Part shown: positions 10,893 to 36,005 of the stretch, piece by piece | Layout of the letters: every line of letters begins with the position of its first letter | Numbering within the stretch: the stretch's first letter is position 1 | From: Candidatus Binatia bacterium | GTDB lineage: Bacteria > Desulfobacterota > Binatia > Bin18 | Reading direction: 5' to 3' | Assembly (NCBI GenBank): GCA_022824615.1 | Contig: JAJDZM010000225.1 | Span: 1 to 59,474 of the forward strand | Length of the DNA: 59,474 nucleotides | The notes under the pieces: model-generated | What the model saw: the letters and a program-made list of their open reading frames with translations, nothing else | The model's database searches: none | What the model was told of the DNA's origin: nothing | Made by a program: the position numbers and the translations under genes

Positions 10893-10953
10893 CAGGCGGT
10901 CTGGAACAATAACCAGCCTCACTTTTCCGTGGCGAAGGTCATTCCTGGGCTAC

Positions 10954-11685: not shown

Positions 11686-11834
11686 ATGGACATGCCTCCG
11701 AAACGTTCTATTGTCATCCTTGTATCATATCGGATGGACCGGGACGACATCGCTTTTTCGCCAGGAGCCGCCTTGCCGACCGCCTAGGGAAAGCGCTAGG
11801 CTACAGAGATCAACACCATACGGGAGGGCGTAGT

Positions 11835-12017
11835 ATGAAAGTGAACTGGGACGAGGAAGTCTGTACGCATTCGGCAAATTGTGTGAAGAGCCTGCCGCAA
11901 GTCTTCAAGGTCGAAGGCGGAGAATTCGTGATTGACCCCAGCGCGGCGCCAGAGGACGAGGTCCGGGCCGTTGTTGCCAAATGCCCGTCAGGGGCGCTGA
12001 GCGTGCAGGAAGATTAA
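11835..12017 (+). CDS. Small divergent 4Fe-4S protein (YjdI/Fer4_19-like)
   Basis: CTHSANCV...P.VF...CPSGAL; GGAGG RBS. Confidence 0.8.
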   Translation: MKVNWDEEVCTHSANCVKSLPQVFKVEGGEFVIDPSAAPEDEVRAVVAKCPSGALSVQED

Positions 12018-12051
12018 AGCGGGATAGGGCCGTTTTTCGGCGGCTGCTGGT

Positions 12052-12618: not shown

Positions 12619-12702
12619 GAATCAGCCCACCCCGTTCTCCGCGCCCTCTCCCCTTCTCGTACCGAGTATGGTAGGGCTGGCTGCTCTGAAAGGGAGGGAC
12701 GT

Positions 12703-14049: not shown

Positions 14050-14053
14050 GACC

Positions 14054-14083
14054 GGAAGGACGATCCTCTCGGACCGTCCTTCC
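14054..14083. terminator. Hairpin between convergent genes
   Basis: GGAAGGACG...CGTCCTTCC 9-bp arms between stops at 14049 and 14104. Confidence 0.55.
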
Positions 14084-14103
14084 TAAAGAAATCCTGTGGC
14101 CTT

Positions 14104-16404
14104 CTACGCTCCACCTGATCCGTTGGTCCCAGGTGAGCCGTTGGTTCCGTTGCCGCGCGTAGCCCAGAAAATCCGCTCGGGATTCATGGGCAGCTCGTAT
14201 AGCCGGGTACCGGTAGCACGGTAGATTGCATTGGCCAGGGCTGCGCCCGGTGGCACGATGGGCACTTCGCCTACGCCGCGCAGACCGTAGGGGCCTTCAG
14301 AGGCCGGGACTTCGGTCAGGACGGTTTCGATCATGGGCAGGTCCAGCGCCACCGGACAGCGATAGTCCAGCAGGCTGGCATTTTTCAGCTCGCCGTTATC
14401 AAAGATATATTCCTCATTCAGAGCCCAGCCGATGCCCTGCACAGCTCCCCCCTGGATCTGACCTTCAACCTGGGTTGGATTGATGGCCTTGCCCACATCC
14501 TGGAAGCAGGTATAGCGCAGGATGGTCACCTTGCCCGTCTCTGGGTCGATCTCAACATCCGCGACATGGGCGGCATAGGCGTGGGCCGGCTGCATCCGGG
14601 TGGTGCTGCCCTTGCCGATGATCGGGCCGCTGCCCCAGGCCACACTCTCGCGGGCCAGTTCGGACAGGCTGACTTCGTTCCGGGTATCATTCTTGGCCCG
14701 GAACCGTTTAGCCTGATACTCGACCTCATCGACCGACACCTTGAGCTTTTCCGCGGCCCGCTCTTTGAGTTGGGTCAATACATCCTGACTGGCCTGGTGG
14801 GCGGCGGCACTCATTGTGTAGGTAATTCGACTGCCGCCGCTCAGGTCGGCAAACGGCGCGCTGTCGGTATCACCCACTGTGATAGTGATATCTTGGGGAT
14901 CAAGCTGGAGTTCATCGGCCACCATCTGGGAAATCGTGGTACGGGTGCCGGTCAGGTCCACGGTCCCTACAAAAATCGAGGCGGTGGCGTCCGGGTTGAT
15001 CTTGACCTCAGCACTCGATGTGAAAGAGCCGCCGATCCAGTAACCCAGGGCCAGACCCCGGCCGCGGTGGGGGCCCTCCAGCGGCGTGGTCCAGCACGGA
15101 TGCGTCTCGATCTGTTTCAGCATCTCGGTCAGGCCGATACGGTTGAGCGGCATACCCAGGGGCAACGTATCGCCTTCTTCGGCGGCGTTTTTCTGACGGA
15201 ACGTCAGCGGGTCGACGCCGATCTCGTCCGCCAGGGCATCCATCAGCGCTTCAACTGCAAAGGCCGCTGGTGTGCCGCCAGGGGCGCGGTAGGCTTGAAC
15301 ACGGGGCTTGTTGGTCAGTACGTCAAACCCTTCGGCAACCATATTATCCAATTTATACGGGGCGAGACCAACCAGCAGGCCGCGGGCGACCGGTGAGCCG
15401 GGAAAGGCACCGGCATCGTAGCGCATGGTCGTCGTCAGCGCGGTAATCTTCCCGTCCTTGGTCGCGCCGGCCTTCACGGTGATGACCGCGGGTGCCCCTG
15501 GGCCGGTTGCGCGCAGCACTTCTTCCCGGGAGACCACGAGTTTGACCGGCCGGCTGGTCTTTTGGGCCAGTACAATAGCGGTGGGTTCAAACAGCGCCAG
15601 GGCTTTGCCGCCAAATCCGCCTCCGATCTCCATGGGTACGACCTTGAGTTGGCTGGCGGGGAGACCGAGCAGGGTCACGAGCTGGGTGCGGACGGTGAAA
15701 TGTCCCTGGGCCGAGGTCCACAAGGTGACCCGGCCGTTGGGCTCGACCCGCGCGGCGCAGGCCTGGGGTTCCAGATAGCCCTGGTGGACCATCTGGGTCG
15801 TATACGTTTTCTCAACAACCGCGTCGGCCACGGTGAACCCGGCCTCAACATCGCCCCGGGTATAGACCATATGGGTGGAAACATTACTCGGCTGGTCGGA
15901 CCTTTCCTGGGTTGCCTCTTCGAGTGTGTGCAGGTCTTCGTGCACGAGCGGGGCGTCAGGCTGCATGGCCTGGAGGACGTCTTCCACGACCGGCAGGGGT
16001 TCGTAGTCAACGTCAACCAGTCCGGCCGCTTCCTCGGCAATAAACGGGTCGGTGGCGGCCACCGCGGCCACGACCTGACCGTGATAGCGAACCTTGTCCG
16101 AGGCCATGACGATCTCGCGGATGGCGCTCATATCGATACTGACTTCTCCCACCAGGGGGGCGGTGGCGCCTTTTGGCAGAGAGGGCAGATCGTGCGCGGT
16201 AATGACGGCTTTCACGCCGGGCAGCGCTTTGGCCCGGCTGGTATCAATATGTTTGATGCGAGCGTGGGCATGCGGGCTACGGACGAGCTTCGCCCACAGC
16301 ATGCCGGGCAGGTCGAGGTCGGCCCCATAGGTCGCCTTGCCCGTGACCCGCTCCGGGGCGTCAACCTTGGCCAAAGACGTTCCAATCACACTATACTCAG
16401 CCAT
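14104..16404 (-). CDS. Xanthine dehydrogenase family molybdopterin-binding (large) subunit
   Basis: KVDAPERVTG, HQGYLEP, IGGGFGGK, AYRAPG, GGSR, GQIQGG and GVGE motifs. Confidence 0.92.
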   Translation of the reverse strand: MAEYSVIGTSLAKVDAPERVTGKATYGADLDLPGMLWAKLVRSPHAHARIKHIDTSRAKALPGVKAVITAHDLPSLPKGATAPLVGEVSIDMSAIREIVMASDKVRYHGQVVAAVAATDPFIAEEAAGLVDVDYEPLPVVEDVLQAMQPDAPLVHEDLHTLEEATQERSDQPSNVSTHMVYTRGDVEAGFTVADAVVEKTYTTQMVHQGYLEPQACAARVEPNGRVTLWTSAQGHFTVRTQLVTLLGLPASQLKVVPMEIGGGFGGKALALFEPTAIVLAQKTSRPVKLVVSREEVLRATGPGAPAVITVKAGATKDGKITALTTTMRYDAGAFPGSPVARGLLVGLAPYKLDNMVAEGFDVLTNKPRVQAYRAPGGTPAAFAVEALMDALADEIGVDPLTFRQKNAAEEGDTLPLGMPLNRIGLTEMLKQIETHPCWTTPLEGPHRGRGLALGYWIGGSFTSSAEVKINPDATASIFVGTVDLTGTRTTISQMVADELQLDPQDITITVGDTDSAPFADLSGGSRITYTMSAAAHQASQDVLTQLKERAAEKLKVSVDEVEYQAKRFRAKNDTRNEVSLSELARESVAWGSGPIIGKGSTTRMQPAHAYAAHVADVEIDPETGKVTILRYTCFQDVGKAINPTQVEGQIQGGAVQGIGWALNEEYIFDNGELKNASLLDYRCPVALDLPMIETVLTEVPASEGPYGLRGVGEVPIVPPGAALANAIYRATGTRLYELPMNPERIFWATRGNGTNGSPGTNGSGGA

Positions 16405-16415
16405 GCTGTCCCTCC

Positions 16416-16892
16416 TTAGGCGGTTTGTGAAAGCGCCTGTGACGCGGCCTGAATGGCGCGCACGATTTTGTCATAGCCCGTGCAGCGGCACAGGTTGCCG
16501 GAAATCGCCAGACGAATCTCGGGTTCGCTCGGGTTGGGGTTGCGCTCCAATAATGCCTTGGCCGACATGATAAAGCCCGGCGTACAAAACCCGCACTGCA
16601 ACGCCCCGTGTTCAATAAAGGCCTGCTGTACGGGGTGAAGGGTGCCCTCAGCCGCAACCCCTTCGACCGTGGTCACGTCCGCGCCCGCGGCTTCTACGGC
16701 GAACACCAGGCAGGCATTGACGACAGCGCCGTTCAAGACGACCGTACACGCCCCGCAGTTGCCATTGCCGCAGCCTTCCTTGGGCCCCATATGGCCCAGC
16801 TTGTAGCGTAGGGTGTCCAGCAGCGTTTCCCGGGTATCGACCAGCGCGGCGTGCGGCTCGCCGTTGACGTTCAGTTCAATCGCCTGCTTCAT
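16416..16892 (-). CDS. Xanthine dehydrogenase family 2Fe-2S (small) subunit
   Basis: KEGCGNGNCGACTV, QCGFCTPG and GNLCRCTGY motifs. Confidence 0.93.
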   Translation of the reverse strand: MKQAIELNVNGEPHAALVDTRETLLDTLRYKLGHMGPKEGCGNGNCGACTVVLNGAVVNACLVFAVEAAGADVTTVEGVAAEGTLHPVQQAFIEHGALQCGFCTPGFIMSAKALLERNPNPSEPEIRLAISGNLCRCTGYDKIVRAIQAASQALSQTA

Positions 16893-17764
16893 GATGCCTC
16901 TCCCTTGGCTCTCTCCAGTGCCTTGCCCAGCGTGCGCCGCGTCAGCACTTTGACCAATTCAATCCGATAGGCTGCCGAGCCACGCACATCGGAGATCGGA
17001 CTGGCAGCCTGGGAGGCCAACTCCCCGGCCTGGGCAATCGTTGTGTCGTCCAGAGACTGGCCCGCTAAAAACGCTTCGGCTTCTTTTGCTCGGACGGGAG
17101 TGGGCGCAACCGCAGCGAGCACGATACGGGCCTGCTCACAGGTACGAGTGTCCGGGCTGAGCTGGACAAACGAGCCCACCCCAGCCACCGCAATATCCAT
17201 CTCTTCGCGCGGGATAAAACGCAGATAGGCCGCCCCGGAATGGGGTGGGGGGGGTGGCAGGACAATCTCGACCAGGACTTCACCTTTTTCCAGTACGGTC
17301 TGGCCCGGTCCGACAAAGAAGTCTTCTGACGGAATCTCCCGCCGTCCGCCTGGTCCGGCAATCACCAGCGTCGCTCCATACGACACCGCCGGCGGAACGG
17401 CATCTGCGGATGGAGCAGCGTTGCAAAAGTTGCCGCCCAGCGTAGCGCGGTTCTGTATTTGATACGAGCCGATCAGGGCGCAGGCCTCGGCCAGGGCCGG
17501 GTAGTGGACACGCACCGGCTCGAACTCGGCGATCTGCGTACACGACACGGCCGCACCAATGTGGAGCCCGGCCTCGTAGGAGAGGACATTGAGCTCGGGA
17601 ATTTTTTTGACATCAACCACCAGAGCCGGGCTGTGGCGGTTCTCCTTCATCTGGGTAATGAGGTCGGTTCCGCCCGCCAGGGGCCGCGCCTCATCACTCG
17701 CCTCGGCCAGCAATGCCACGGCGTCTTGTAGATTCTGCGGAGCTGCGTACTCGAATGCGTCCAC
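16889..17764 (-). CDS. Xanthine dehydrogenase family FAD-binding (medium) subunit
   Basis: AGGTDL, QIQNRATLGGN and DVRGSAAYR motifs. Start moved to GTG 17764 (RBS AAGGAGG). Confidence 0.9.
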   Translation of the reverse strand: MDAFEYAAPQNLQDAVALLAEASDEARPLAGGTDLITQMKENRHSPALVVDVKKIPELNVLSYEAGLHIGAAVSCTQIAEFEPVRVHYPALAEACALIGSYQIQNRATLGGNFCNAAPSADAVPPAVSYGATLVIAGPGGRREIPSEDFFVGPGQTVLEKGEVLVEIVLPPPPPHSGAAYLRFIPREEMDIAVAGVGSFVQLSPDTRTCEQARIVLAAVAPTPVRAKEAEAFLAGQSLDDTTIAQAGELASQAASPISDVRGSAAYRIELVKVLTRRTLGKALERAKGEAS

Positions 17765-18073
17765 ACTCAGGCCCTCCTTCTCCTTGGACACCAGTACTCC
17801 TATCTCTTGAAGCAGGCGGAGATCAAGGGTAAAGGGCCAGCGGGAGGGGTTGCACAGAAAGGGGCGGCTTCGGAGTGGTCTTGGAGTCAGCACCAAAAAA
17901 ATCGATGAACGGAGGGACGCTGGCCCGGACACACTCGTGCACCGATGCAGAACGCCTGCTACTATCCGTGGGGATCGGCAGGACCGGTCCGGTTCGCCTT
18001 CACCGGATTTCTTCTGCCGGCGGCGGCGTCCGCCCCGGTTCGCTCGTATCGAAGACCATCCGCAGGAGCGGTC

Positions 18074-21310: not shown

Positions 21311-21413
21311 GTAAGAACGTGTGGACAATTCGGGTCGGGCCTGATTAAGTAACCCGGTTGTGGAGGGGAGGAGGCGTCCGAGTACGAAAACCTTGCGTAA
21401 GGAGGAAAGATTC

Positions 21414-22199
21414 TTGGCAAACTGGACTGAACAGAAGGCCCATATAGCTGAAGCTGAATTAACGCTCATTAAGGGCGGAGCAGGTAAACCCTTGTTAATG
21501 CTGCATGATGAGCTGGGATTCCCTGGTTGGGTGAAATGGAATGACGAGCTTGCGGCGGAGCACGCCTTTGTGATTCCGCTCCAGCCGGGTTTTGGCAAAA
21601 CCCCACGTCTGGGGTGGGTTCGGAGTTTCCGCGACCTGGCCGGCCTGTATAGCATGGCGGTTAGAGAAATGGGGCTCGACCCGGTGGACGTCATTGCATT
21701 CTCAGCCGGTGGATTCATTGCCGCTGAAATGGTCGCGGCCGATCCCAAGATTTTTGACCATTTGATTCTGGTGGGCCCGATGGGGCTCAAGCCCGAGAAG
21801 GGCGAAATCTGGGATATCTTCCCGGTGACGATTCGGACCCATTTGCGGCGAACAGTAGCGGACCCTGGTACTGCTGAGTTCGGAAACATTTACGGTGGCG
21901 AGATGACGCCGGAGCAATTCGAGGCGTTCGAAGATGCCCGAGCAGAAAGCGCGCGCATCGGCTGGGAGCCATATATGCATAATCCCAGCCTGCCCTATCT
22001 GTTGCGTGGCGTGAAAAACGTGCCCACCCTCCTGATCCGCGGCTCCGAAGACCAGATCGTGCCAGCGGGCTGCATTGCCACCTATACCAAAGCCATTGAC
22101 GGGGCCAAGGCGGTGGAAATGGCCAATGTCGGCCATCGTCCGGAAATCGAGAATTCCGTCGAATTTGTCAAAATCGTGCAAGACTTCCTGAAAGAGTAA
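21414..22199 (+). CDS. Alpha/beta fold hydrolase
   Basis: LLMLH, PGFG, AFSAGG elbow, GSEDQIVP and GHRPE motifs; TTG start after AAGGAGG. Confidence 0.85.
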   Translation: MANWTEQKAHIAEAELTLIKGGAGKPLLMLHDELGFPGWVKWNDELAAEHAFVIPLQPGFGKTPRLGWVRSFRDLAGLYSMAVREMGLDPVDVIAFSAGGFIAAEMVAADPKIFDHLILVGPMGLKPEKGEIWDIFPVTIRTHLRRTVADPGTAEFGNIYGGEMTPEQFEAFEDARAESARIGWEPYMHNPSLPYLLRGVKNVPTLLIRGSEDQIVPAGCIATYTKAIDGAKAVEMANVGHRPEIENSVEFVKIVQDFLKE

Positions 22200-22289: not shown

Positions 22290-23624
22290 ATGCAAATTTC
22301 ATATTTCACCGAACGGCCCTATCGTGGTCTGAACGAGGACGAGATACTCAAGAATAAAGCCTACTTCGCTGTGCCCAACGCTCTGTTCGACCGTGAGCAG
22401 GCGGCGAACGATTACAATTATTATCTTGACGAATATTGCTATGCCGAAGAGCTGGGTTTCGATGCCGTTGCGCTCAACGAGCACCACGGCAACCCCTTCT
22501 GCATGGGCAGCGTCATGAATGTCGAAGCTTCCATTCTGGCCCGTATTACCAACAAGGTTCGCATTGTCCTGATCGGTAATCCGTTACCGGTGCTAAAGCA
22601 TCCGCTGCGGATGGCCGAAGAGCTGGCCGAGATTGATCTGATCTCGCGCGGGCGTCTCGTTACCGGCTGGGTGCGTGGGGCGGGCAGCGAGCAGTTCTTC
22701 AATAACGCCAACCCGGCCTATAACCGGGAGATGTTTAACGAGGCCCACGATTTTATCGTGCAGGCCTGGACCAAGCCCGGTCCGTGGCGCTACGAGGGCA
22801 AGCATTTTCACTACCGGCATGTGAACCCTTGGGCGTTGCCCTACCAGAAACCGCATCCCCCGATGTGGATTCCCGGTGTGTTGAGTCCGGAGACGGCCCG
22901 CTGGTGTGCGGAACACCGCTACCCCTATCTGGGTCTGGGCACGGCCTTGGGGCCAACCTGCGATCTGTGGGATTTCTATGCGGATGAAGCCGCTAAGCAC
23001 GGCTATCAGGCCGGTCCGGAAAACTTTGGCTATCTGATCCCGACCTTTCTAGCCGAGACGGAAGAGAAGGCCCAGGAAATCGGCAAGAATTTTGTGTTCG
23101 GTGGTGGCCAGAACGCCTTTTCCCGTCCCGAGCATACCCTGCCGCCAGGCTATAACTCCAAGGGGGCGATCCGCATGCTGGCCAAACATCCGGGCGGGAG
23201 CTGGCTGGGCGTCAGCCCCGAGAAGCTGCGCGCCCACTCGGACGGCGGTCGGCCCGACACCACCGACTTTGATACTGTCCGTCAGAAACTGCTCAAGGGC
23301 TACGGCAAGGCGCAGAAGAACCTCCAACTCCTCATCGGCACCCCGGAGTCCGTCCTGCCCAAAGCCAAGACTTTGCTGCGGGTGCTGCGACCGAGCATTT
23401 TTGTCTTCTTCAATATCCAGGGGCCGGTCGGTGACGAGGATCGCAAAACGAGCATGCGTCTGATTGCCCAGGAATTGACCCCGCAACTGCGGGAATACGC
23501 CAAGGAAATCGATCTGGTCGATCCGTTTGAACGGACCCCCGGCTCGGTGGCCTATCGCAACGGGGTGACGCGCGACCCGGTCGTGGACCGCGAACCGCTG
23601 GCTGCGTTGGGCATGGCCGGCTAG
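22290..23624 (+). CDS. Luciferase-like (LLM) flavin-dependent oxidoreductase
   Basis: AEELGFD..LNEHH, PLRMAEELAEIDLISRGRL and PYQKPHPP motifs. Confidence 0.9.
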   Translation: MQISYFTERPYRGLNEDEILKNKAYFAVPNALFDREQAANDYNYYLDEYCYAEELGFDAVALNEHHGNPFCMGSVMNVEASILARITNKVRIVLIGNPLPVLKHPLRMAEELAEIDLISRGRLVTGWVRGAGSEQFFNNANPAYNREMFNEAHDFIVQAWTKPGPWRYEGKHFHYRHVNPWALPYQKPHPPMWIPGVLSPETARWCAEHRYPYLGLGTALGPTCDLWDFYADEAAKHGYQAGPENFGYLIPTFLAETEEKAQEIGKNFVFGGGQNAFSRPEHTLPPGYNSKGAIRMLAKHPGGSWLGVSPEKLRAHSDGGRPDTTDFDTVRQKLLKGYGKAQKNLQLLIGTPESVLPKAKTLLRVLRPSIFVFFNIQGPVGDEDRKTSMRLIAQELTPQLREYAKEIDLVDPFERTPGSVAYRNGVTRDPVVDREPLAALGMAG

Positions 23625-23665
23625 GTCGCACATACGGGCCGGGTGTCGTTTGTGTTGACCGGCGG

Positions 23666-23693
23666 AAAGGGTGGTCGTGAGGCCGCCCTTTTT
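23666..23693 (+). terminator. Rho-independent terminator
   Basis: AAAGGGTGGTC-gtga-GGCCGCCCTTTTT. Confidence 0.7.
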
Positions 23694-23763
23694 GTTGTGC
23701 GCAGAACCGCGGTAGGATGTCCGCAGGAGAAACGTTACTTCCAGACTGAGGGGGACGCGCACG

Positions 23764-24795
23764 ATGAGTGATGCTCACGAACATGATACTGGCGCGGCCT
23801 TTCAGCAGCGCCAGTTGACACCCGACCGGAACCGTGAACGCGAGATTCAGGTCAAGGCGATCGAAGCCCTGCTTGCCGAGAAAAATTTTGTTTCCACCGC
23901 ACTGCTCGATACCGTTCTGGACTCGTATGAAAACGATATCGGACCGTTGAACGGCTGTCGGGTCGTTGCCCGGGCCTGGACGGACCCCGCCTATAAGGCC
24001 CGTCTGCTTGAGAATGGCACCGCCGCCATAGCCGAGCTGGGCTTTGGCGGCTTGCAGGGTGAGCATCTGGTTGTGGTGGAGAATACGCCCCGGACGCATA
24101 ATGTGATCGTCTGCGCGTTATGCTCGTGCTACCCCTGGCCGGTTCTGGGTCTGCCGCCGTTTTGGTATAAGAGCCAGTCGTATCGCTCCAGGGTCACCGG
24201 CCGGCCTCGTGAAGTGCTCCGGGAGTTTGGGCTTGAACTGGACGAAAACATCCAGATTCAGGTCTGGAACAGTACCTTTCAGACCCGCTATATGATCCTG
24301 CCGGAGCGGCCGTCCGGTACGGAGCAGATGACGCTCGATGAACTCGTATCCATTGTTACGCGGGATGCGATGATCGGGGTGGCGCGGGTCGAGCCTGAGA
24401 AAAAACAGCCGTCCGGCCTTTCTCAGAGACAGGTGTCTGATATGCAGGGCCCTGCCGCTCTGCCCCGACGGAGTGGCGAACTCCAGTTCCAGGACCCTTG
24501 GGAAGGCATTGCTTTTGCCCTGGCGGTCGCCCTATGCGAACAGGGTCTGTATGCCTGGTCCGAGTTTCAAGAGGGCTTGATTGCCGAGGTTGCCAGCGCG
24601 GACCGGCAGGCACCTGAGACGCGACCAACGTATTATGAAAGCTGGATGGCCGCCTTTGAAAAGCTGCTCGACGCTAAAAACATACTGGCGCAGACCGCAA
24701 TCAATCGCCATGTCCGGCAGATCAAACAGAGCCTCTCTCTGCGCCGCACCCGTCTACCGTTTGGCATCCGGCCCTGGCCGGATGATGAAGGTTAG
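23764..24795 (+). CDS. nthA: Nitrile hydratase alpha subunit fused to an NHase accessory/activator (P14K/NhlE-like) domain
   Basis: Residues ~1-210: [36 protein letters not shown] and VTRDAMIG. Residues ~225-320: [25 protein letters not shown]...[13 protein letters not shown]. The frame is continuous. Confidence 0.85.
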
Positions 24796-24919: not shown

Positions 24920-26158
24920 TCAGCCGTCTCCCGGTGGTGGACCGGCGATAATTTTTTGGCCTTCCAAGTCCGCTAGTTTCTCTGAATCCAGTCCCAGGAC
25001 TTCCTTGAGAACAAGATAGGTGTGCTCACCGGGATGGGGAGCGCTGGGCAGGTCGGAGGGTTCCAGGTCGCGGGCTTCGATCACCGGGCCGGGCACCCAG
25101 ATCGAACCGAGATCGGGGTCGTCAACATGGTGGAAGCAGGGCAGGCCCCGAGCGTGCTGTTCCGCTTCGATACTGTCCCGACACGGTTCGACCACCAGCC
25201 CGGCCTGGCCCAGAGTCTTGAGTACCTCTTCCTGCGACCGGGCCGCAATCCAGTCGGCAATCTGTTGTTTAATCGTATCGACCCGCTCATAGCGGGCATG
25301 GTCGCCGTGAATCTCGTGGCCCTGCTCATCGAGAGCGAGGTTGCGCAGGCCGGTGGCTTCGCGCAGCCGACGTAAAACCGAATCGCCAATCAGATTCAGG
25401 GTAACGAACTTACCGTCTCGAGCGCAGTAATGGCCATGAACGGCATCCAGTAGATTGTCGCCGATCGGTTCCCGGCCCTCGCCGGTTGTCTCAGCCTGGG
25501 CATACCAGCCCAGCTCTGCCAGGGTTTGAAACGCGACCTGTTCCAGCGCGATCTGATAGCAGTCGCCCCGCCCGGTTTCCGCCAGACGGCGCAGGGCGAC
25601 GTGGAAGGCGTTCAGGCCATGCAATCCGGTGAGCATATCGAAAAACGCCACTGGAATAGTGAGCGGTCTGCCGTGCGGCTCGCCGGTAGCATGCGCTAAC
25701 CCGGTTGCCCCTTGCATGGAGTAATCGTTGGCCGCCCGTCCGTCGTGCCCACCGTCGAACTGGATTTTAATGACGGACGGCCCGCAGTGCTCGACCAGAT
25801 GCGTGTAGTCGAGCCAGGGCGCCATGCGCGGGGGCCAGTTGCTGATCAGTACATGGGTTTCTCGAATGAGGTCGAGCACGAGCCGTCTGCCCGCCTCCTG
25901 ACGAAAGTCGATGGCCACCGCCTGCATACCGCGGTGCAGCATCTGCCAGGGGATGCTGACACCGGCCCGATTCAGGGGGCCACGCTCCCGGTCGGGCAGC
26001 CCGCGGCCATGATGCGCTCCCATAATGGGCTCGACCAGAATGACGCGCACGCCGAGTCGCATCAATTCGAGCAGCATCTTGTTCGGAGCGACAAACAGCC
26101 CAATGGCTACAACGGTAATCTCCTCGCCGTCTATGCTGTAGCGTAATTGGAAGGACAC
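24920..26158 (-). CDS. Family III CoA-transferase, divergent mesaconyl-CoA C1-C4 transferase (Mct)-like
   Basis: AVAIDFR, ISNWPPR, DGRAANDYSM, FDMLTG, TGRGD and APHPGEHT motifs; GGAGG RBS. Confidence 0.75.
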   Translation of the reverse strand: MSFQLRYSIDGEEITVVAIGLFVAPNKMLLELMRLGVRVILVEPIMGAHHGRGLPDRERGPLNRAGVSIPWQMLHRGMQAVAIDFRQEAGRRLVLDLIRETHVLISNWPPRMAPWLDYTHLVEHCGPSVIKIQFDGGHDGRAANDYSMQGATGLAHATGEPHGRPLTIPVAFFDMLTGLHGLNAFHVALRRLAETGRGDCYQIALEQVAFQTLAELGWYAQAETTGEGREPIGDNLLDAVHGHYCARDGKFVTLNLIGDSVLRRLREATGLRNLALDEQGHEIHGDHARYERVDTIKQQIADWIAARSQEEVLKTLGQAGLVVEPCRDSIEAEQHARGLPCFHHVDDPDLGSIWVPGPVIEARDLEPSDLPSAPHPGEHTYLVLKEVLGLDSEKLADLEGQKIIAGPPPGDG

Positions 26159-26210
26159 GCTTCACCTCCTCTATCACATCAATGATACCACAGCACCGCA
26201 CTGGCAGGCG

Positions 26211-26239
26211 ATTATTCTAGGGGGGTGTCTGGCTGTCAA
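26211..26239 (-). promoter_or_regulatory. Sigma70-type promoter for the CoA-transferase
   Basis: TTGACA-N17-AATAAT on the minus strand. Confidence 0.5.
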
Positions 26240-26332
26240 GCGTAATTTGCCAAGTGAGAGGGCCACGCTTGAACTCTTACCAATGCTCATATTAAATCGC
26301 GGGCTGCCAACGTCTCCGAGAGGTAGGGAAAT

Positions 26333-26542
26333 ATGGACGAAACAAGAACGCCCCAATTTAGCGATTTAGTTGAAAAGCAGTTAAGTTCCGATGAAAACTC
26401 GCGCGAGCTATGGAGACCCATAGCCGATGAGTTTAATAGGGGCGGGGGTGGACCTGATGCTGCCAAGGAATACCTTGACGCCGAGGCGCAACGGCTCCTG
26501 GAACGTGTAGAGAAATTACTTGGTCAAGTTGAAGGAGGGTGA
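26333..26542 (+). CDS. Small acidic helical protein, first gene of the SMC cassette
   Basis: 69 aa with RBS; stop overlaps the next start (GTGA). Confidence 0.7.
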   Translation: MDETRTPQFSDLVEKQLSSDENSRELWRPIADEFNRGGGGPDAAKEYLDAEAQRLLERVEKLLGQVEGG

Positions 26543-28629
26543 AGCCAGTGGCAAGCGGGTTCCGTATCCAGAAGATTGCAATTGAAGGATTCAAGGGATT
26601 CACGACACGCCAGGAGATTGGTCTTGACGAGTGTCATGCCTTTTTGCTGGGACAAAATGGCAATGGGAAGTCAAGCATAGTTGAAGCCATTCGCTGGGGA
26701 CTCTTTGGTTCTATAAGAAGGCGGAATGAAATCGTGGCGAATCGGGATTATTCAGGCCGCTGCCACGTTGAGATTACGCTCGTGCGTGAAGGGAAGGTCT
26801 GGCATCTTCGTCGCACTTTGATAAAGGGCAGCAGTGGTGGGAGTGATGCTGAGCTTACCGATGACCAAGGTGGGGAACATCCTATTCGGAACATTATGCC
26901 CCAATTGGACTCTGCGGAGGCGGGTGAAGGGATGCACATCATTTTTGCGCCTCAATCCACTCCGCTCCGTCGTCAGCCTGAAGACCTCAGTCCATTTGAA
27001 AGGACTGTTTTTAACCACCTGGGGCTTGCCCACCCCCGAGCCTTGTTGAGCCAACTGGACGGTTTCCTAGAGACACAGGAATTTGGGGAGACGAATCTAG
27101 CAGATAAGCTCACTGAGGCTCGCCGGAATATCGACGGAGACATTAGCCAGCTAGAGCACCAAAGAGACGATATCGTCGGTTCGCCACCCTGGGGGAGCAG
27201 TCCTGCACCCTCAATTGCAGAGTCCGAGAACAAAGTGCGAGAGATTATCAAAAAAACCACTGGCAACCCACCTGACGAGGCTTTTTCAGGGCTATCGCTA
27301 GGTGCCCTGATTGACGAAGCGGAAGATGTTCTGGAAAACAGACGATCCCAAGACCTAGGCGAACTTGAAAAAGAGATGGAAGAGATTGTCGAACGCCGGG
27401 AGCGTCTGGAAGAATTTCTAGGAATTCAAGAGGAAATCGAAACGCAGCAGTCCAGAGTCCGAGACAAACAATCGGAACTTGACGACACATTGGAGGATAT
27501 GAGCCTCGACGAACTCCAGAATAGAGTCAAAGAAAAACGGGCGGCGGTAGATGCTGAAGACTTGAGGCGTCAGATAGCCGAAACAGCGACTGACTGGCTA
27601 CATCGTAACGAGGAGAACTCGGTATCTTGTCCTGTTTGCGAAACAACACACTCCAGGAAAGATTTGGCGGTGCTCCTTCAACAGATCATTGATAAACCGT
27701 CCGACGCGACAACTTCAGAGCTAAACCAACTCGAAGCCAAACTCAAACAAGTCGAAGACCTTAAACGTGAGGTTCAGAGCTTCAAGGGCGATCTTGATAA
27801 GCTGGAGCAAGAGGCGGAGACGATCAAGGCACATATTGATTCAGACGATACGAAAGAACTCCCTGAAAGGATTAAGGAATGTTCAGACCATGAGGCTTCA
27901 ATCAAAGAACAGATTGACGGGAGCGAGGACCGACTTAATGAAATAGGACGCCGGCTTTCCAATCTGAGGGAGGAAGACAGATTCCATGACATCAGAAAGC
28001 GGCTTGCGAGTATTAAGCAATCCAGAAAGCGATTTGAGGGTGTCGAGAAAGCATATCAAGACCTTGTTGCATTCGGTGAATCAGTTCGGTCAATACGGCA
28101 AGCGGTTGAGATTTGTCTAAGAGAGCGACTTGAGAACGATATTCCTCAAGTATCTGATAATCTTTCAAAAGTCTTTGCATCCCTCACTCGCCATCCGTGG
28201 TATGATCGACTGGCCATTGTAAAAGACAAATTGCCAAAGCTGGAGTTACAGGTGGCGAGTAGTCACGACCCTTCTGGTCGCGGATATCCCACCGATGTAC
28301 TGAACGGACAGTCCGAGAGTGCGTTAGAACTTGTCCCGTACTTCGCGTTCAGCCAGACGGACGATGCGCCTACCGAGGTGTATTTAGTCCTGTTGGACGA
28401 TCCCACGCGAGCGTTTGACGAAGAGCATACCGAGATATTGGTCGAACGCTTAGCCGAGTTGGGGAATCATGTACAACTCGTAGTTGCATCGCAGGAGACA
28501 TCTCGCTTTCGCTCGCTATTGCCGAAGAATTTCCAACCGGCCGACTATGTTATCGTTGAACCTAACCAGTGGACGCATTCCGACGGCCCGCAACTAACGA
28601 TTGAGCGTGATGAGTCGTGCCAGACCTGA
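26539..28629 (+). CDS. Rad50/SbcC/SMC-like ABC ATPase with zinc hook
   Basis: IEGFKGF, Walker A GQNGNGKSS, long coiled coils, central CPVC hook, Walker B/D-loop VLLDDPTRAFD. Confidence 0.88.
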   Translation: MKPVASGFRIQKIAIEGFKGFTTRQEIGLDECHAFLLGQNGNGKSSIVEAIRWGLFGSIRRRNEIVANRDYSGRCHVEITLVREGKVWHLRRTLIKGSSGGSDAELTDDQGGEHPIRNIMPQLDSAEAGEGMHIIFAPQSTPLRRQPEDLSPFERTVFNHLGLAHPRALLSQLDGFLETQEFGETNLADKLTEARRNIDGDISQLEHQRDDIVGSPPWGSSPAPSIAESENKVREIIKKTTGNPPDEAFSGLSLGALIDEAEDVLENRRSQDLGELEKEMEEIVERRERLEEFLGIQEEIETQQSRVRDKQSELDDTLEDMSLDELQNRVKEKRAAVDAEDLRRQIAETATDWLHRNEENSVSCPVCETTHSRKDLAVLLQQIIDKPSDATTSELNQLEAKLKQVEDLKREVQSFKGDLDKLEQEAETIKAHIDSDDTKELPERIKECSDHEASIKEQIDGSEDRLNEIGRRLSNLREEDRFHDIRKRLASIKQSRKRFEGVEKAYQDLVAFGESVRSIRQAVEICLRERLENDIPQVSDNLSKVFASLTRHPWYDRLAIVKDKLPKLELQVASSHDPSGRGYPTDVLNGQSESALELVPYFAFSQTDDAPTEVYLVLLDDPTRAFDEEHTEILVERLAELGNHVQLVVASQETSRFRSLLPKNFQPADYVIVEPNQWTHSDGPQLTIERDESCQT

Positions 28630-29131
28630 TGCAAGCGAGTGTATCGAACGCATACGCTCAAGCATCTCCCCAGGTGAGTTTGGTTACAAAATCCAAGCTC
28701 TTGCCGCGCATATCTTATTACGTCTCGGCTATCGGATAGAGGCGGTCAACCGCGCAGGTCATCCAGATATCGTCGCTATCGGAGGAGGAAGGGAGTTCCG
28801 ATTTGAGGTGGAGGCCGAAGCATTCGGGCCGCGTCCTCGTCAGTTGACCGCCGCCGACTTCGCCTCGCTGATTGAAACTCCCAACATAGTCGGCTACTAC
28901 GCGCTGGCAATTAGTTGTCCTAAGCCTTACTGGGTACTGGTGCCAGCCTCGATACTTGCTTGCAGAACACGGCCTGCCCCAAACATTCTGCTGGAAGCCC
29001 TCAGTGATAAAGAATACTCGGCGGAATGGACACGCGAGTACGTCGGACTGCTTCAGGAGGCGTGCCGTCAAGTCAGACTGGCATCGTTCAGCGACCTATG
29101 CGAAATGGCGTTAGAAGGGCACGGGCTATGA
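28610..29131 (+). CDS. PD-(D/E)XK-like restriction endonuclease-fold protein
   Basis: LLRLGY...GHPDIVA...FEVEAE; overlaps both neighbours. Confidence 0.6.
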   Translation: MSRARPDASECIERIRSSISPGEFGYKIQALAAHILLRLGYRIEAVNRAGHPDIVAIGGGREFRFEVEAEAFGPRPRQLTAADFASLIETPNIVGYYALAISCPKPYWVLVPASILACRTRPAPNILLEALSDKEYSAEWTREYVGLLQEACRQVRLASFSDLCEMALEGHGL

Positions 29132-30090
29132 GATGTGAAGGTGGAGTTCTGAATAAACCAAAGAACCAACACTTATATGTTCCAAAATCCATCATAAAGA
29201 ATTTCGTTGATCCATTAGCCAGTCAGAAGAAGGTTTTCAGCGCTCGTAAAGATCGACCTAACAAGGTAAGAAATTGCTCGCCTAAAAAAGTATTCACTGA
29301 AGGCGATGTATTTACGTTACATAACGAGAGACCGGAGAATCGTTATAGAGTAGAGACCTATATCAGTAGAGTGGAGAATGGCTTTGCTGCCGTCTATCAT
29401 AAGAAGATACGTCCGGCTGTTAAAAGACAAGAATGTCCCGCTCTATCTGCGAACGACCTCGGAGCGGTCATTTTGTTCTTCGCCTTGCAAGCTAGGCGAT
29501 CCCTTGCAGGGAGAGGTGCGGCAGAAGACTACATACACTCTGACGAAGCCGTCAATGACTTGACCGATGATTTTATTAGATATGAGAGAAAAAGGTATAT
29601 TGGCTATGGCAACATAGTCTTGCCTGGCACATATAATAATGTTCGTAGCTGTATTGCTCTAGGTCTCAAAAGAGTTGACGTAAAAGAAATGTCCGCAAAG
29701 GCAATGCTTGCGCAGGAAGATAGAACTCACCCTAACTCATTGAGCCATGAGCTCTGTAGAAGGGGATTGACTATAGGAGTGATTAAAAATCCTACGCCCA
29801 AGAATAGCTTTGTCCTTGGGAATAATCCCATTATAGAGGCAGGCAGTGGAGGCTCTTCTAATCTGAAGACAAACCCGGAAGCGGAACGTATACTTCCCAT
29901 CGCGCCCGACGTAGGAATATCCTTGGTAGGCCCTACAGGATCAGTAAGTCTGATCTCACTTGAGGACATAAGCCACATCGAAGAATTAAACTTAGCTGTG
30001 ACCAAACAGAGTACCGAAATTGTCGCTAACAACAGAGAATTATTGGAAAGCTTGGGACGTAGTATGTGGTGGGAGCGAGTAGCAAAATAG
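29128..30090 (+). CDS. DUF4238-like protein
   Basis: N-terminal QHLYVPKSIIKNF, ETYISRVEN, FVLGNNP and LPIAPD patterns; ATGA overlap with the upstream stop; low GC. Confidence 0.7.
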   Translation: MRCEGGVLNKPKNQHLYVPKSIIKNFVDPLASQKKVFSARKDRPNKVRNCSPKKVFTEGDVFTLHNERPENRYRVETYISRVENGFAAVYHKKIRPAVKRQECPALSANDLGAVILFFALQARRSLAGRGAAEDYIHSDEAVNDLTDDFIRYERKRYIGYGNIVLPGTYNNVRSCIALGLKRVDVKEMSAKAMLAQEDRTHPNSLSHELCRRGLTIGVIKNPTPKNSFVLGNNPIIEAGSGGSSNLKTNPEAERILPIAPDVGISLVGPTGSVSLISLEDISHIEELNLAVTKQSTEIVANNRELLESLGRSMWWERVAK

Positions 30091-32417: not shown

Positions 32418-33218
32418 TCATCCGAGCTGGGTAACAAAGGTCTCCAGGGTCTGGTTGAACGCCAGCGGCTGCTCAATCTGGTACATATGGGCAACGTCGG
32501 TGACGATCTGCAAGTCCGCATTCGGCATGTGTTCGGCCAGAATCCGGTTGGCTTCAACCGGCGTGGCCTCATCTTCTTCGCCCACTACGATCAGCGTGGG
32601 CTGAGTAATCTCCGTGAGCCTGGGCGTAATATCCCAATTCCATACGCCGTCGGGGTGTTCGACCAAGGCGCAGGCCACGCGTCGCGGAAAGGCGACAGGA
32701 TCGAGCAGGTTGTTTTTGAGCAAACTACAGACCTCGGGCCGCTCGCGCCGCGTTCGCTGGGAAAAACAGCGCCGCACAAACTCGTCGGTCATCTCTTCGT
32801 ATTTGGTCCGCAGGTCTCTCAGCAGATCGGTCGAATCCACAAACCGGGTCAGATTCGTCGCGCTGCTGATAATCAGATTGCCGGCGACGAGGTCCGGGTT
32901 GTCCAGGCATATCTGCATGGCCCGCATGCCGCCCATGGAATTGCCAACCAGAATCGCACGGTCAAGGCCCAAAGCGGCCAGCACGGCGGCATCGTCGGCC
33001 GCCATCTCCTGAATGGAATACCCGCTCAGCGGCTTGCTCGAACGTCCGTGGCCCCGGGCTTCGATCACAATACAGCGATAGCGGTGGGCCAGGAGCGGGA
33101 CCTGATAGGTCCATATCCAGGCGTTGCAGGAATACCCGTGCAGAAAAACGAGCGGCCGACCCTGCCCATAATCGTCGTAATGCACGCGAATCCCGTGCTC
33201 CCTTTCAACGAATGGCAT
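32418..33218 (-). CDS. Alpha/beta fold hydrolase
   Basis: FLHG, RGHGRS, GNSMGG, GEEDEATP and AHM motifs. Confidence 0.9.
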   Translation of the reverse strand: MPFVEREHGIRVHYDDYGQGRPLVFLHGYSCNAWIWTYQVPLLAHRYRCIVIEARGHGRSSKPLSGYSIQEMAADDAAVLAALGLDRAILVGNSMGGMRAMQICLDNPDLVAGNLIISSATNLTRFVDSTDLLRDLRTKYEEMTDEFVRRCFSQRTRRERPEVCSLLKNNLLDPVAFPRRVACALVEHPDGVWNWDITPRLTEITQPTLIVVGEEDEATPVEANRILAEHMPNADLQIVTDVAHMYQIEQPLAFNQTLETFVTQLG

Positions 33219-33239
33219 GGACGCTCCTCTGCTCTTTGT

Positions 33240-33710
33240 CTACTGGCCGAGAAAGGGGGTTTTCACCCAGCCGTCGCCGTACGGGGTAAAGAAGAAGGGC
33301 GTCACGCTGAGGTGTTTGAATTTCCACTCGCCGTCCCGCTTCTCATAGCGCTCTTCGTAGCGACCGGTCAGCCAGGCGGCCTGGTTGCCCTCGGCCAGGG
33401 TGCAGGGCTGAAACAGGTACCACTGGCCCGTGGCGGTGTCTGCGTCTACCTCAATAATGGGGTTCATGACGTTGTGGACCGCAAAAGGAAAGATTTCAGC
33501 CGCACCCTGAAAGAAGGTGCGGATGGCCTCACGGCCTTCGTGCTTGCCAAATTTTCCGCCATCCCAGACCGCGTCCTCGGTAAACAGTTCGGCAATACCG
33601 TCCGCGTCGTACTGATTGTCGCAGAAGGCACAGTAGCGAGCTTTGAGCTTTTTGATGGCTTCAATGCTCTCCAGGGTTTGAATGCGTTGAGCAATATCGT
33701 CAGCGTTCAT
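33240..33710 (-). CDS. SnoaL-like (LinA/BaiE-like) NTF2 protein
   Basis: AIKKLKARYCAFCD, LFTEDAVW, H...NPII and GRYEERY..RDGEWKF motifs. Confidence 0.85.
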   Translation of the reverse strand: MNADDIAQRIQTLESIEAIKKLKARYCAFCDNQYDADGIAELFTEDAVWDGGKFGKHEGREAIRTFFQGAAEIFPFAVHNVMNPIIEVDADTATGQWYLFQPCTLAEGNQAAWLTGRYEERYEKRDGEWKFKHLSVTPFFFTPYGDGWVKTPFLGQ

Positions 33711-33734
33711 ATTTTCTCCCTCCTTGGTGAGATA

Positions 33735-36005
33735 TTATTGTCCTGTTGTTGAAGACCCGGAAGGTGTGGCCTGCCCCGTCTTGACCAGACGGCACGGTAG
33801 ACCGCGCAGCAGCCAAGTGCCCATCATGGGGTCGCACTGCGCCGGGTCATCATCGGTACACATATTGATATTCGTTTCCCACAGGCCGTACAGCTCCGGG
33901 GCCTGTCCCGGGCGCTCGGGATACCACCAGCGGTCGGCCTGGACGACGCGTGGATGGAGCGTTTTATTCAAACGGGCGACGTGTCGCACGCTACCGATTG
34001 GGGTCTCGATGGCGACCCACGTCCCGTCCTCAATACCGAGTTCCGCCGCGGCGTGCGGGTGAAGCTGGACCACCGGGTGGGGATATTTCTTGCGGAACCA
34101 CGGCATCTGGTGGCTGTTCTGGTGAAAGCCTTCGATGACCCGCCCTCCGGTTGTCAGCACCAGCGGATAGTCGGCGGACCAGCGTGTAAAGATTTCCGGT
34201 TCCTCGTAGACGGGCAGGGCCGGGTAGTCGAGTTCGGTCAGGATGGCCGAGCGTAACTCCACCCGCCCGGATGGGGTCCCAAAGCGCGGTTCATTGTCCT
34301 GGGCCGACCGGCCAGTGAATTTTCCGTAGCGCGGCGTGGCGGACATCCACGGCCCGCTCTGCTGAGCAAGGGTGTGAAAGCTGAGGCCGGCCGGTTGCAG
34401 GCAGGTGTCCCAGAACTCCTCAACGGTTTCCGGCCAGTCGGTCTCCTGACCCAGCCGCCGCCCGAGGTCTCTCCACAGCTCATAATCGTTCCGGTGACCC
34501 TGCTCGGGCTCAATGGCCGCGTGGCTCGCCGCGGCGTAATCGCCGGCGGTACCCATATAGCCCAGGCCGGTGGAGAAGGACGGCTTTTCGAGCCAGTGGC
34601 TGGCCGGCAGGACGTAGTCGGCCAACTGCGCGGTCGGAGACAGAAACAGGTCGTGGACCACCAACAGTTCCAGGTTGGCACTCCGTAGCGCCTGTTCGAC
34701 CCGCCTGGCATTGCCACTCCCACCCAGCGGATTATGGTGCTGGACAAACAGCCCCTTGACCGGATACGGCTCGCCCTGGGTAATCGCCTGCCACAGGCTG
34801 GGCTCATGGGCCGAAGCCGTCCAACTCAGCAGGTGGTGCTTGCCGTGCCAGGCCGGCGCCATGGCCGCATCAAGCTGCTTATACCCGTCGCCCAGCAGAC
34901 GAAAGCGATCGATCCCCAGTCGCTTGCGCCACTGTTCTTCGGGCAGGCGGTCCATCAGCATCACGTCCCCGTTTGCCACGACCTGCCGGGGAGGGCCGGA
35001 CAGGGAGTGGCCACCCTCGCGATCCAGATTGCCGCTAATGGCCACCAGACAAGCAATTGCCCGCGCAGCCTGGAGGCTCGCCGGGCCGAGCTGGCACACC
35101 CCGTTGCCGCTATTGATAATGCCCGGTCGGCTACGGGCAAACAGCCGCGCCGCTTTGACCAGGAGTTCTTTCGGGACCCAGGTGAGTTCGGCGGCCCGTT
35201 GCGGCGAGTAGGCAGCCACGTGCTGCTGCAAGGCGTCGAACCCAGTGGCGTACTGCTCGACAAACTCCCGGTCGTGCAGACCCTCTTCAATAAGAACCGA
35301 GAGCCAGCCCAAGGCTAAGGCGCCATCCGCTCCAGGGCGGAGCTGCAACCACAGATCGGCCTGCTTTGCTTCGGTGGTATAGTGGGGATCAACCACAATG
35401 AGTGTAGCCCCCTGGCGGTGGGCTTTGACGATCTGTTTCCACAGGAGGGGCACCGAAGCACTCGGCCGCATCCCCCACAGCACTATGCATTTCGTCAGGC
35501 CGGGGACGGGAGAGGTGTGCGCGGTCGGGCCATAGCCATAGGTCAGTGCCTCGGCCATGGTCGTTGGGCCGGAGCAGATTTTATCCTGTCCGGCGCTGTT
35601 GGGGCTGCCGAAAAGGTTCAGAAAGCGCTCGCCAAGGCCCCAGTCCGCGCCATGAAACGTGCCGAAGGTGACGGCAACACTCTCAGGGCCGTGCTGGTGC
35701 TTCAGGGTTTTGAGCCGTGCGGCAATATCGTCCAGGGCTTCGTCCCAGCTGACCTGCTGCCAGGCCCCCTCGCCCCGTTGCCCGGTGCGTTTGAGTGGCC
35801 AGTGGACGCGCCCCTCCTGGTAATGCAATTCAGCAGCCCGGCGACCCTTAATACAGACAAACCCCTGACTGATCGGATGCTCTGCGTCGCCGCTGATGTG
35901 GGTGATTCGTCCCTGCTCCACATGGGCGAGCACGCCACACTGCTGAGAACAGCTACAACATATAACGGGCCTGACGGCTGTCTGCTCTTGGGTGGAATGA
36001 GTCAT
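33735..36005 (-). CDS. Bis-MGD molybdopterin oxidoreductase (acetylene-hydratase-like clade)
   Basis: N-terminal CxxCxxxC...C 4Fe-4S motif, putative Cys ligand in DKICSGP, ADYVLPA, TPSGRVEL and RWWYPE; no Tat signal; start at ATG 36005. Confidence 0.85.
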   Translation of the reverse strand: MTHSTQEQTAVRPVICCSCSQQCGVLAHVEQGRITHISGDAEHPISQGFVCIKGRRAAELHYQEGRVHWPLKRTGQRGEGAWQQVSWDEALDDIAARLKTLKHQHGPESVAVTFGTFHGADWGLGERFLNLFGSPNSAGQDKICSGPTTMAEALTYGYGPTAHTSPVPGLTKCIVLWGMRPSASVPLLWKQIVKAHRQGATLIVVDPHYTTEAKQADLWLQLRPGADGALALGWLSVLIEEGLHDREFVEQYATGFDALQQHVAAYSPQRAAELTWVPKELLVKAARLFARSRPGIINSGNGVCQLGPASLQAARAIACLVAISGNLDREGGHSLSGPPRQVVANGDVMLMDRLPEEQWRKRLGIDRFRLLGDGYKQLDAAMAPAWHGKHHLLSWTASAHEPSLWQAITQGEPYPVKGLFVQHHNPLGGSGNARRVEQALRSANLELLVVHDLFLSPTAQLADYVLPASHWLEKPSFSTGLGYMGTAGDYAAASHAAIEPEQGHRNDYELWRDLGRRLGQETDWPETVEEFWDTCLQPAGLSFHTLAQQSGPWMSATPRYGKFTGRSAQDNEPRFGTPSGRVELRSAILTELDYPALPVYEEPEIFTRWSADYPLVLTTGGRVIEGFHQNSHQMPWFRKKYPHPVVQLHPHAAAELGIEDGTWVAIETPIGSVRHVARLNKTLHPRVVQADRWWYPERPGQAPELYGLWETNINMCTDDDPAQCDPMMGTWLLRGLPCRLVKTGQATPSGSSTTGQ

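Follow-up and report, generated by a model that had tools for sequence, protein, structure and literature searches.

The DNA analysed here is a stretch of 59,474 nucleotides (the window) from a Candidatus Binatia bacterium (contig JAJDZM010000225.1 of assembly GCA_022824615.1), and the element in question is a gene in which the alpha subunit of nitrile hydratase (NHase), an industrially used enzyme, continues in the same reading frame into an accessory protein, the activator of the P14K/NhlE type. Contrary to the free accessory protein, which is small and free-standing, the accessory domain of the window is covalently fused to alpha. Our analysis revealed that this arrangement is shared by a conserved clade of proteins, that no gene for a beta subunit accompanies it in any locus examined, and that its product might act as a hydratase on its own. 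The parts of the gene are the following.

23764..24795, + strand: whole fused gene, 343 amino acids (aa) and stop (open frame, Pfam, NCBIfam)
about 8 nt 5' of the ATG of the fused gene, + strand: Shine-Dalgarno-like GGGGGA run (sequence)
23839..24384, + strand: NHase alpha domain, residues 26-207 (PF02979, TIGR01323, model versus 4ob1_A)
24112..24132, + strand: metal-binding claw C117-A-L-C120-S121-C122-Y123 (read from the sequence)
24265..24291, + strand: WNSTFQTRY, residues 168-176, with Asn169 and Thr174 as clade markers (alignment)
24391..24459, + strand: linker, residues 210-232, including the 12-residue stretch 210-221; variable, low model confidence
24442..24726, + strand: accessory domain (activator, P14K/NhlE-type), residues 227-321, folded like the N-terminal domain of beta (TIGR03889, PF21006, model)
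24568..24570, + strand: codon of Gln269, at the site of the invariant beta arginine (R52 in the literature numbering; alignment)
24727..24792, + strand: C-terminal tail, residues 322-343 (..F..W-P-D-D-E; alignment)

As the initial annotation had claimed, an alpha domain and a P14K/NhlE-like domain lie in one continuous open reading frame, and both score above curated cut-offs. PF02979 (NHase_alpha) covers residues 26-207 with an E-value of 1.3e-82 (276.1 bits against a cut-off of 27.2), and TIGR01323 (nitrile hydratase subunit alpha) reaches 276.7 bits against a curated cut-off of 249.85. The C-terminal part is recognised by TIGR03889 (nitrile hydratase accessory protein; residues 242-313, 67.2 bits against a cut-off of 46) and by PF21006 (NHase_beta_N; residues 227-321, E-value 1.5e-8, 35.2 bits against 21.5). 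The protein stays below the cut-offs of the NHase beta subunit (TIGR03888, 27.6 bits against 152.2) and of thiocyanate hydrolase gamma (TIGR03887, 174.1 bits against 291.45), and it has no match to PF02211 (NHase_beta_C). The family of NHLP RiPP leader peptides (TIGR03793, 50.5 bits against 50.9) was rejected as an assignment, the fused protein being a full-length alpha with an intact claw.

The two motifs given in the initial annotation, CALCSCY (from residue 117) and WNSTFQTRY (from residue 168), were read as described, and the 12-residue linker between the domains was placed at residues 210-221. The alpha claw C-x-L-C-S-C is complete in the fused protein, with all three cysteines and the serine. 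The motif of cobalt-type NHases is V-C-T-L-C-S-C-Y; in the fused protein its tyrosine after the last cysteine is kept, and its threonine after the first is replaced by Ala118. The latter position is occupied by Ala (27), Val (27), Thr (25) or Met (4) in 83 aligned members of the fused clade, and the alanine of the window is one of several residues tolerated there. The conserved W-D-S motif of canonical alphas, which follows the second beta-hairpin, is altered by N169.

That the fusion is a sequencing artefact or a one-off loss of a stop codon is ruled out by junction-spanning contigs, by recurrence, by the conserved clade and by purifying selection. Contigs spanning the junction (about 24400-24440) without insertions or deletions were found in the likely source run X1 and in three other studies (X2, records 13 and 14; X5, record 26; RNA library X20, record 19). 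The last of these contigs carries one extra G at the stop codon (window 24794), which would alter the C-terminal end in that strain; relatives of the fused protein are 343 or 344 aa long. The search in other genomes proposed in the initial annotation showed that the same fusion recurs as a single frame in many independent assemblies. Both Pfam domains are present in all 120 protein clusters listed, which share 60-92% identity with the query and are 326-427 aa long. Within the Candidatus Binatia family of the window organism, a full-length, stop-free copy in a single frame occurs in 41 of 55 genomes (58-100% identity), six more genomes carry the gene in pieces owing to contig ends or a broken frame, and 9 of the 10 genera have a match of some kind. 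Three fused genes were found as two pieces in a broken frame (L035, 8001-9087; G219:C1:729394-730322; G240:C140:11310-12322), and these copies may be pseudogenes or assembly errors. A second genome scan with generic NHase peptides added one new fused locus (L094) among 78 new loci listed. In a phylum-wide sample 4 of 201 genomes had any alpha match, a number uninformative on co-occurrence, and a search of the ESM Atlas with the fused protein gave a best score of 0.83, under the threshold of 0.9 that a hit has to reach to count as anything beyond a lead.

Every part of the fused gene is under purifying selection. Among 21 genus-level copies (210 pairs), the median ratio of nonsynonymous to synonymous substitution rates (dN/dS) was lowest in the alpha domain (0.096), followed by the tail (0.16) and the accessory domain (0.17), and highest in the linker (0.27). 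The gene is nearly core in this Binatia family, and the DNA of the window and its close relatives, like the window strain itself, occur mainly in sponge metagenomes. An aeroplysinin-1-specific NHase activity, with the sponge or a symbiont as its origin, has been described in Aplysina cavernicola (PMC3766881). It was dropped as an identification, the enzyme being Mn-dependent and its peptides showing no homology to known NHases (PMC3766881).

Beta subunit genes at the fused loci and elsewhere

The initial annotation had found no beta gene in the window, which is borne out by a scan with NHase_beta_C (PF02211): it gave no match on the window's contig (C28). A genome scan with NHase_beta_N (PF21006) detected on the same contig only the accessory domain of the fusion itself (24442-24726). 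Among 79 loci fetched with the protein of the window, 21 carry the fusion as a single frame, and in another (L035) its frame is broken; in flanks of up to 8 kb, none of these 22 has a beta C-domain, whereas 56 of 57 separate, unbroken alphas have beta alongside, the sole exception lying at a contig end. The beta C-domain was likewise missing from the one new fused locus of the second scan, from 15 fused metagenome loci and from 14 loci of the family's other genera; some contigs recur among these four sets (22, 1, 15 and 14 loci).

The betas lie elsewhere in the genomes. In each of the five closed Binatia chromosomes that were compared, three alphas stand against two beta C-domains, and every beta adjoins one of the two alphas that are not fused. 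Five further carriers have alpha and beta C-domain counts of 3/2, 2/1, 3/2, 3/2 and 2/1, and the window's own genome (89.6% complete) has 3/2. The initial annotation had advised locating nthB; in the window's genome the betas are found on contig C55 and, in split form, on contig C217. According to these whole-genome counts, an orphan beta is present in none of the 11 carriers tested.

At C55 beta, alpha and activator form an operon of the type studied in Pseudomonas putida (P14K) and Rhodococcus rhodochrous (NhlBAE). Such an operon, the kind that holds the alpha and activator sequences nearest to the fusion, resembles it in having the same metal claw and a homologous accessory domain and differs from the fusion in comprising three genes, with a beta that carries two catalytic arginines, whereas the fusion is one gene with no beta and with Gln at the R52 site. 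The third NHase locus of the genome (G000, contig C217:32698-34776; loci L002, L005, L009) has its beta split in two:

32698-33021: beta N-domain gene
33046-33831: short-chain dehydrogenase gene, between the beta halves
33841-34143: beta C-domain gene
34147-34776: alpha gene; no activator gene is present at this locus

In a related locus (L036) the beta halves are adjacent, with no dehydrogenase between them. The fusion is a third NHase type in an uncultured symbiont lineage, beside the canonical and split-beta loci of the same genome. Several records of metagenome-assembled genomes (MAGs) with such NHase loci are titled Enterobacteriaceae or Klebsiella (L033, L036, L038, L062, L197, L202, L205), and these taxonomic labels look wrong; kinship with Binatia is direct for L033 by synteny and for L038, L197 and L202, the contigs of which recur as family genomes G259, G250 and G238.

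The three types do not always occur together. Two genomes that are both 100% complete (G120, G227) keep the C55-type alpha and activator and have no fusion, and a third (G226, 97% complete) has the C55-type and the C217-type alpha and no full-length fused match. The genomes of genus g144 combine the fusion with the C55 type only, and G250 (84% complete) combines it with the C217 type only. As C55 has its own activator and G120 and G227 retain this type of NHase without the fusion, the canonical NHases do not need the fused protein.

Origin and architecture of the fused clade

A single origin of the fusion is supported by both domain trees. In the tree of the alpha domain (94 rows, 187 columns, quick IQ-TREE) all 39 fused sequences form one clade with an SH-aLRT value of 99, and this clade belongs to a larger group (SH-aLRT 86) of unresolved branching order, which also holds the canonical alphas of beta-alpha-activator loci, among them the genome's own C55 alpha. 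In the accessory-domain tree, a weak FastTree reconstruction from only 120 columns, all 19 fused domains again form one clade (support 95). The fused protein is 57% identical to C55 in its alpha and 51% in its activator, and its alpha domain shares 51-57% identity with the resident alphas. At C55 the stop of alpha overlaps the start of the activator (7988-7991), so that a small change there would be enough to fuse the two genes. As these comparisons suggest, the clade may go back to a beta-alpha-activator operon that had been duplicated; its alpha and activator genes, neighbours that overlapped, would have fused once and then been parted from beta.

Along with the architecture, the clade has its own signature residues. 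All 83 fused members have Asn169, whereas 49 of 49 canonical alphas have Asp at that position; Phe133 is likewise invariant among the 83, and Thr174 is shared by 79 of them. Four positions of the N-terminal arm (R16, L18, N23 and R26) are fixed in the fused clade; in canonical enzymes this arm of alpha wraps beta. The fixation of residues near the active site and in the arm suggests that the clade has a constrained function or interface of its own and is not decaying.

The structure of the fusion was predicted from the alignment of 83 sequences. The modelled alpha domain matches the solved alpha subunit of a Co-NHase, 4ob1_A, with Z 22.7 (rmsd 3.0 over 196 residues), followed by 2dpp_A with Z 21.6, and the modelled accessory domain matches N-domains of beta (2dd4_B, Z 6.9; 4fm4_B, Z 6.4; 3qxe_B, Z 6.2), unrelated rows reaching Z values of at most 4.8. 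When the whole fusion was compared with the sequences of the PDB, the matches were confined to alpha chains of NHase and the gamma chain of thiocyanate hydrolase, which is alpha-like, and no solved structure of an activator was found in this search. The homodimer prediction with two copies of the fusion scored 0.00 in both runs, with controls that were not folded, and bears neither way on dimerisation.

The C-terminal domain, judged by its profile matches and alignment, is activator-like and not a disguised beta, and it descends from the small activator that adjoins alpha in beta-alpha-activator operons. In the accessory alignment (83 fused, 126 free accessory and 111 beta sequences) a core of F242, W246, Y290-Y291 and W294 is common to all three groups. 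The position of the invariant beta arginine holds Arg in 100% of the 111 betas and in 36% of the 126 free accessory proteins, and Gln in 64 of the 83 fused members. The tail (322-343) occurs in the fused clade alone; neither beta nor the free accessory proteins have anything equivalent.

The joining of alpha and activator is itself not new. The initial annotation, which knew of beta-alpha fusions only, is corrected here by the archaeal NHase A07HB70, a natural alpha-activator fusion in print (Guo, Cheng and Zhou 2024, Protein Expr Purif 214:106390, as cited in PMC11573777). A cluster of 351-aa Natronomonas proteins (e.g. WP_256029551.1), which carry the annotation 'nitrile hydratase alpha subunit/nitrile hydratase accessory protein', is apparently of the A07HB70 type. 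Like the protein of the window, the haloarchaeal fusion has alpha and activator in one chain of about 350 aa in the same domain order; it falls outside the fused clade on the alpha tree, as a separate lineage (P0122), and it keeps the canonical CTLCSCY and WDSSSEIRY, whereas the window's clade has N169. A full-length beta lies directly upstream of it in 3 of 3 loci, in contrast to the window's clade, in which no locus examined has a beta. The alpha-activator architecture is thus already known, in a separate lineage that keeps beta.

Other known arrangements share single aspects with the fusion. The eukaryotic beta-alpha NHases of Monosiga and others are also natural gene fusions but join the two catalytic subunits, and their activator is undiscovered according to PMC7193024. 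An engineered beta-alpha-P14K chain (Xia et al. 2016, PMC4709657) has the activator on the C-terminus of alpha, as in the window, and was active; it is artificial and contains beta, whereas the window's fusion is natural and lacks it. In the alpha-e2 intermediate (NhlAE, PMC7193024), as in the fusion, alpha and activator are associated without beta, and this is the state of cobalt insertion and cysteine oxidation; the intermediate is transient, non-covalent and of 1:2 composition and hands its alpha to beta, whereas the fusion is covalent, 1:1 and without a dedicated beta. No title or abstract describing a beta-less alpha-activator clade was found in the literature searched, subscription journals being mostly outside that search. 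What appears new here is a large, conserved, beta-less clade with signature residues of its own.

Proposed autonomous activity and competing explanations

In the explanation that we favour, with a probability of about 0.45, the fusion is an autonomous, self-maturing and beta-independent single-chain hydratase of the cobalt-type NHase family. The data establish what the domains are, that the ligands are intact, that the fusion arose once, that no beta accompanies the gene and that each part is under selection; the metal, the oxidation of the cysteines, the docking of the domains and the activity are what we infer from them. The alpha domain would bind non-corrin Co(III) through the claw, with the usual Cys-sulfinate and Cys-sulfenate modifications. 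The tethered activator domain would cover the face of alpha that normally lies under the beta N-domain or the free activator and would promote cobalt insertion and cysteine oxidation in cis; since maturation would take place within the same polypeptide, no subunit swapping would be needed. Afterwards the domain would remain as a permanent structural partner. The mature protein would then hydrate nitriles or close C-N compounds without a dedicated beta, and the product would pass to whichever hydrolases the nearby genes encode.

Activity without beta has a precedent in an NHase alpha, probably ToyJ from the toyocamycin enzyme (Nelp et al. 2014), that normally works with two beta-derived subunits and has no fused activator. 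That alpha was metallated, oxidised, fully modified and active on its own (PMC11672702), which demonstrates that beta is not required for these steps in every case. A stronger form of the autonomous hydratase, which we regard as possible and as less probable than the general one, is a natural minimal NHase, in which one polypeptide inserts cobalt, oxidises its own cysteines and hydrates its substrate without beta, the activator domain and the tail taking the roles of beta, including those of its two arginines. If this holds, the activator domain would be a structural and catalytic partner, and beta would be dispensable in nature and not only in vitro.

Several observations weigh against autonomy. 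R52 and R157, the latter in the beta C-domain, form salt bridges to the oxidised cysteines (PMC7193024). Both arginines are missing from the fusion, which has no beta C-domain and Gln at the R52 site, and the textbook active site is incomplete. The structure model is of moderate confidence (mean pLDDT 70.8, pTM 0.63), and pLDDT drops below 50 over residues 121-136 (metal loop), 216-241 (linker) and 330-343 (tail). All 11 carriers tested encode one or more complete NHases elsewhere, and none of them is without a beta. The attached activator is compatible with beta binding, as indicated by the haloarchaeal fusion beside its beta and by the active engineered beta-alpha-P14K. Across the loci compared, the clade has no conserved amidase or other partner. 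Moreover, the contig from the X20 RNA library over the gene speaks for its presence and not for an expression level, DNA carry-over being possible.

A hybrid enzyme, in which the fused chain borrows a beta in trans, either that of C55 or the split one of C217, and carries the activator attached to one side, as an isoenzyme on the haloarchaeal plan, is the most serious competitor, although we consider it unlikely. At least one beta elsewhere in 11 of 11 carriers tested would make such pairing feasible, and the haloarchaeal fusion with its beta directly upstream (3 of 3 loci), the active engineered beta-alpha-P14K chain (PMC4709657), the 57% identity of the fused alpha to the C55 alpha and the conserved N-terminal arm all speak in its favour. 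However, no fused locus examined has a beta nearby, unlike the separate unbroken alphas (56 of 57), and each beta already has its own adjacent alpha. The fusion shows no consistent co-occurrence with either type of beta either, genus g144 having the C55 type only and G250 the C217 type only, and the substitutions peculiar to the clade, with the invariant D169N among them, point to an altered environment.

The initial annotation had proposed either a covalent metallochaperone that serves an NHase elsewhere or a single-chain enzyme in which the activator replaces beta, and between the two the evidence leans to the enzyme. What did not stand up is a simple replacement, given the lack of a beta C-domain and the Gln at the invariant Arg. 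As a metallochaperone the fused protein would be a frozen maturation intermediate that takes up cobalt and passes it on, or otherwise matures canonical NHases, and would itself not be an enzyme. The architecture indeed mimics the alpha-e2 maturation intermediate of Co-type NHases (PMC7193024), the split-beta locus of C217 type is without an activator of its own, and the catalytic beta arginines are absent. Against this, C55 has its own activator, three-subunit NHases of the Streptomyces canus type mature without an activator (PMC11573777), and G226, G120 and G227 keep canonical NHases without a full-length fusion. The alpha domain is a diverged paralog (51-57% identity to the resident alphas) that is not swappable as self, and its dN/dS of 0.10, together with neighbourhoods that vary between genera, fits an enzyme better than a helper. 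Hence, we regard the metallochaperone as quite improbable.

Least probable of all is that an altered second sphere has led to changed chemistry, that is, to another substrate or reaction (thiocyanate, cyanamide-like) or to metal or ligand binding without turnover: Asn169 in 83/83 fused members against Asp in 49/49 canonical alphas, the lack of the beta arginines, the variable residue 118, the variation between Gln and Arg at the beta-R52 position and the diverse gene contexts would suit it, but the protein is still an NHase alpha equivalog (276.7 against 249.85) well under the thiocyanate hydrolase cut-off (174.1 against 291.45), all metal ligands are intact, and no conserved neighbour indicates another activity.

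The role of the activator in the maturation of cobalt NHases is unsettled, and ideas of self-subunit swapping, metallochaperone action and redox activity compete or coexist (PMC7193024, PMC11672702). In the fused clade, selection has kept a stable covalent 1:1 unit of alpha and activator without beta, which could yield the first structure of an alpha-activator interface and could serve to test directly whether a natural enzyme needs beta with its two arginines. If the single-chain hydratase is active, a self-maturing NHase encoded by a single gene would be useful for biocatalysis, where current enzymes need three genes expressed in balance.

Gene neighbourhood

In the genus of the window, the order of genes is alpha/beta hydrolase, luciferase-like monooxygenase (LLM), fusion and a convergent CoA-transferase:

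21360..22199, + strand: alpha/beta hydrolase, upstream of LLM (Pfam)
22290..23624, + strand: LLM, upstream of the fused gene (PF00296)
23661..23696, + strand: 16-bp hairpin followed by a U-run, between the LLM stop and the fused gene (RNA fold of 23625-23763; z -2.18, weak)
24920..26158, - strand: family III CoA-transferase, convergent with the fused gene (PF02515)

The hairpin may be an intrinsic terminator, with the fused gene then transcribed on its own. A simple scan for promoters and terminators around the gene detected nothing beyond the shuffled expectation and did not call the hairpin at 23661-23696. All 21 close Binatia loci have LLM immediately upstream (82-100% identity), and 19 of them have the CoA-transferase downstream. 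LLM is more tightly conserved than the adjoining fusion in the same loci, being 96-100% identical in 18 of the 21 and 82-84% in the other three, with 74-97% for the two domains of the fusion. The LLM family has seven further matches in the window's genome (38-72% identity), and a PDB search indicated no specific function for LLM. At C55 (G000 C55:6616-11168) the beta-alpha-activator operon is followed by an LLM and an alpha/beta hydrolase that are paralogs of those in the window (45% and 35% identity, respectively), so that the same pair of gene families stands beside two NHase loci of one genome. LLM, with or without the alpha/beta hydrolase, was considered as an obligatory partner of the fusion and rejected, being absent from the loci of other genera.

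Outside the window's genus, the fusion is accompanied by a xanthine-dehydrogenase-family enzyme with a circularly permuted ATP-grasp protein, by Amidohydro_3 or Amidohydro_2 proteins, a glyoxalase-fold protein, a glutathione S-transferase (GST), major facilitator superfamily (MFS) transporters or FKBP. Amidohydro_3 occurs in 8 of 11 annotated loci outside this genus and recurs in a further locus set. Such recurring amidohydrolases in contexts that look catabolic fit an enzyme that produces amides.

Beyond the CoA-transferase, a low-GC stretch (window 26174-30090; 0.49-0.51 versus about 0.58-0.62 around it) contains a 176-aa open reading frame without a Pfam match and two further genes:

26539-28629: SMC/RecF-like ATPase
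29026-30090: DUF4238 protein

This stretch may be an inserted island and is perhaps a defence system. Another part of the window (4418-17932) is rich in catabolic redox genes and includes the following features:

4418-5239: LigB-type dioxygenase
5826-7814: aldehyde:ferredoxin oxidoreductase
8250-8936: IS1-like transposase fragment
14104-17932: xanthine-dehydrogenase-family enzyme

The family of the last of these enzymes also adjoins the fusion in genus g144 (L094, L227, L233).

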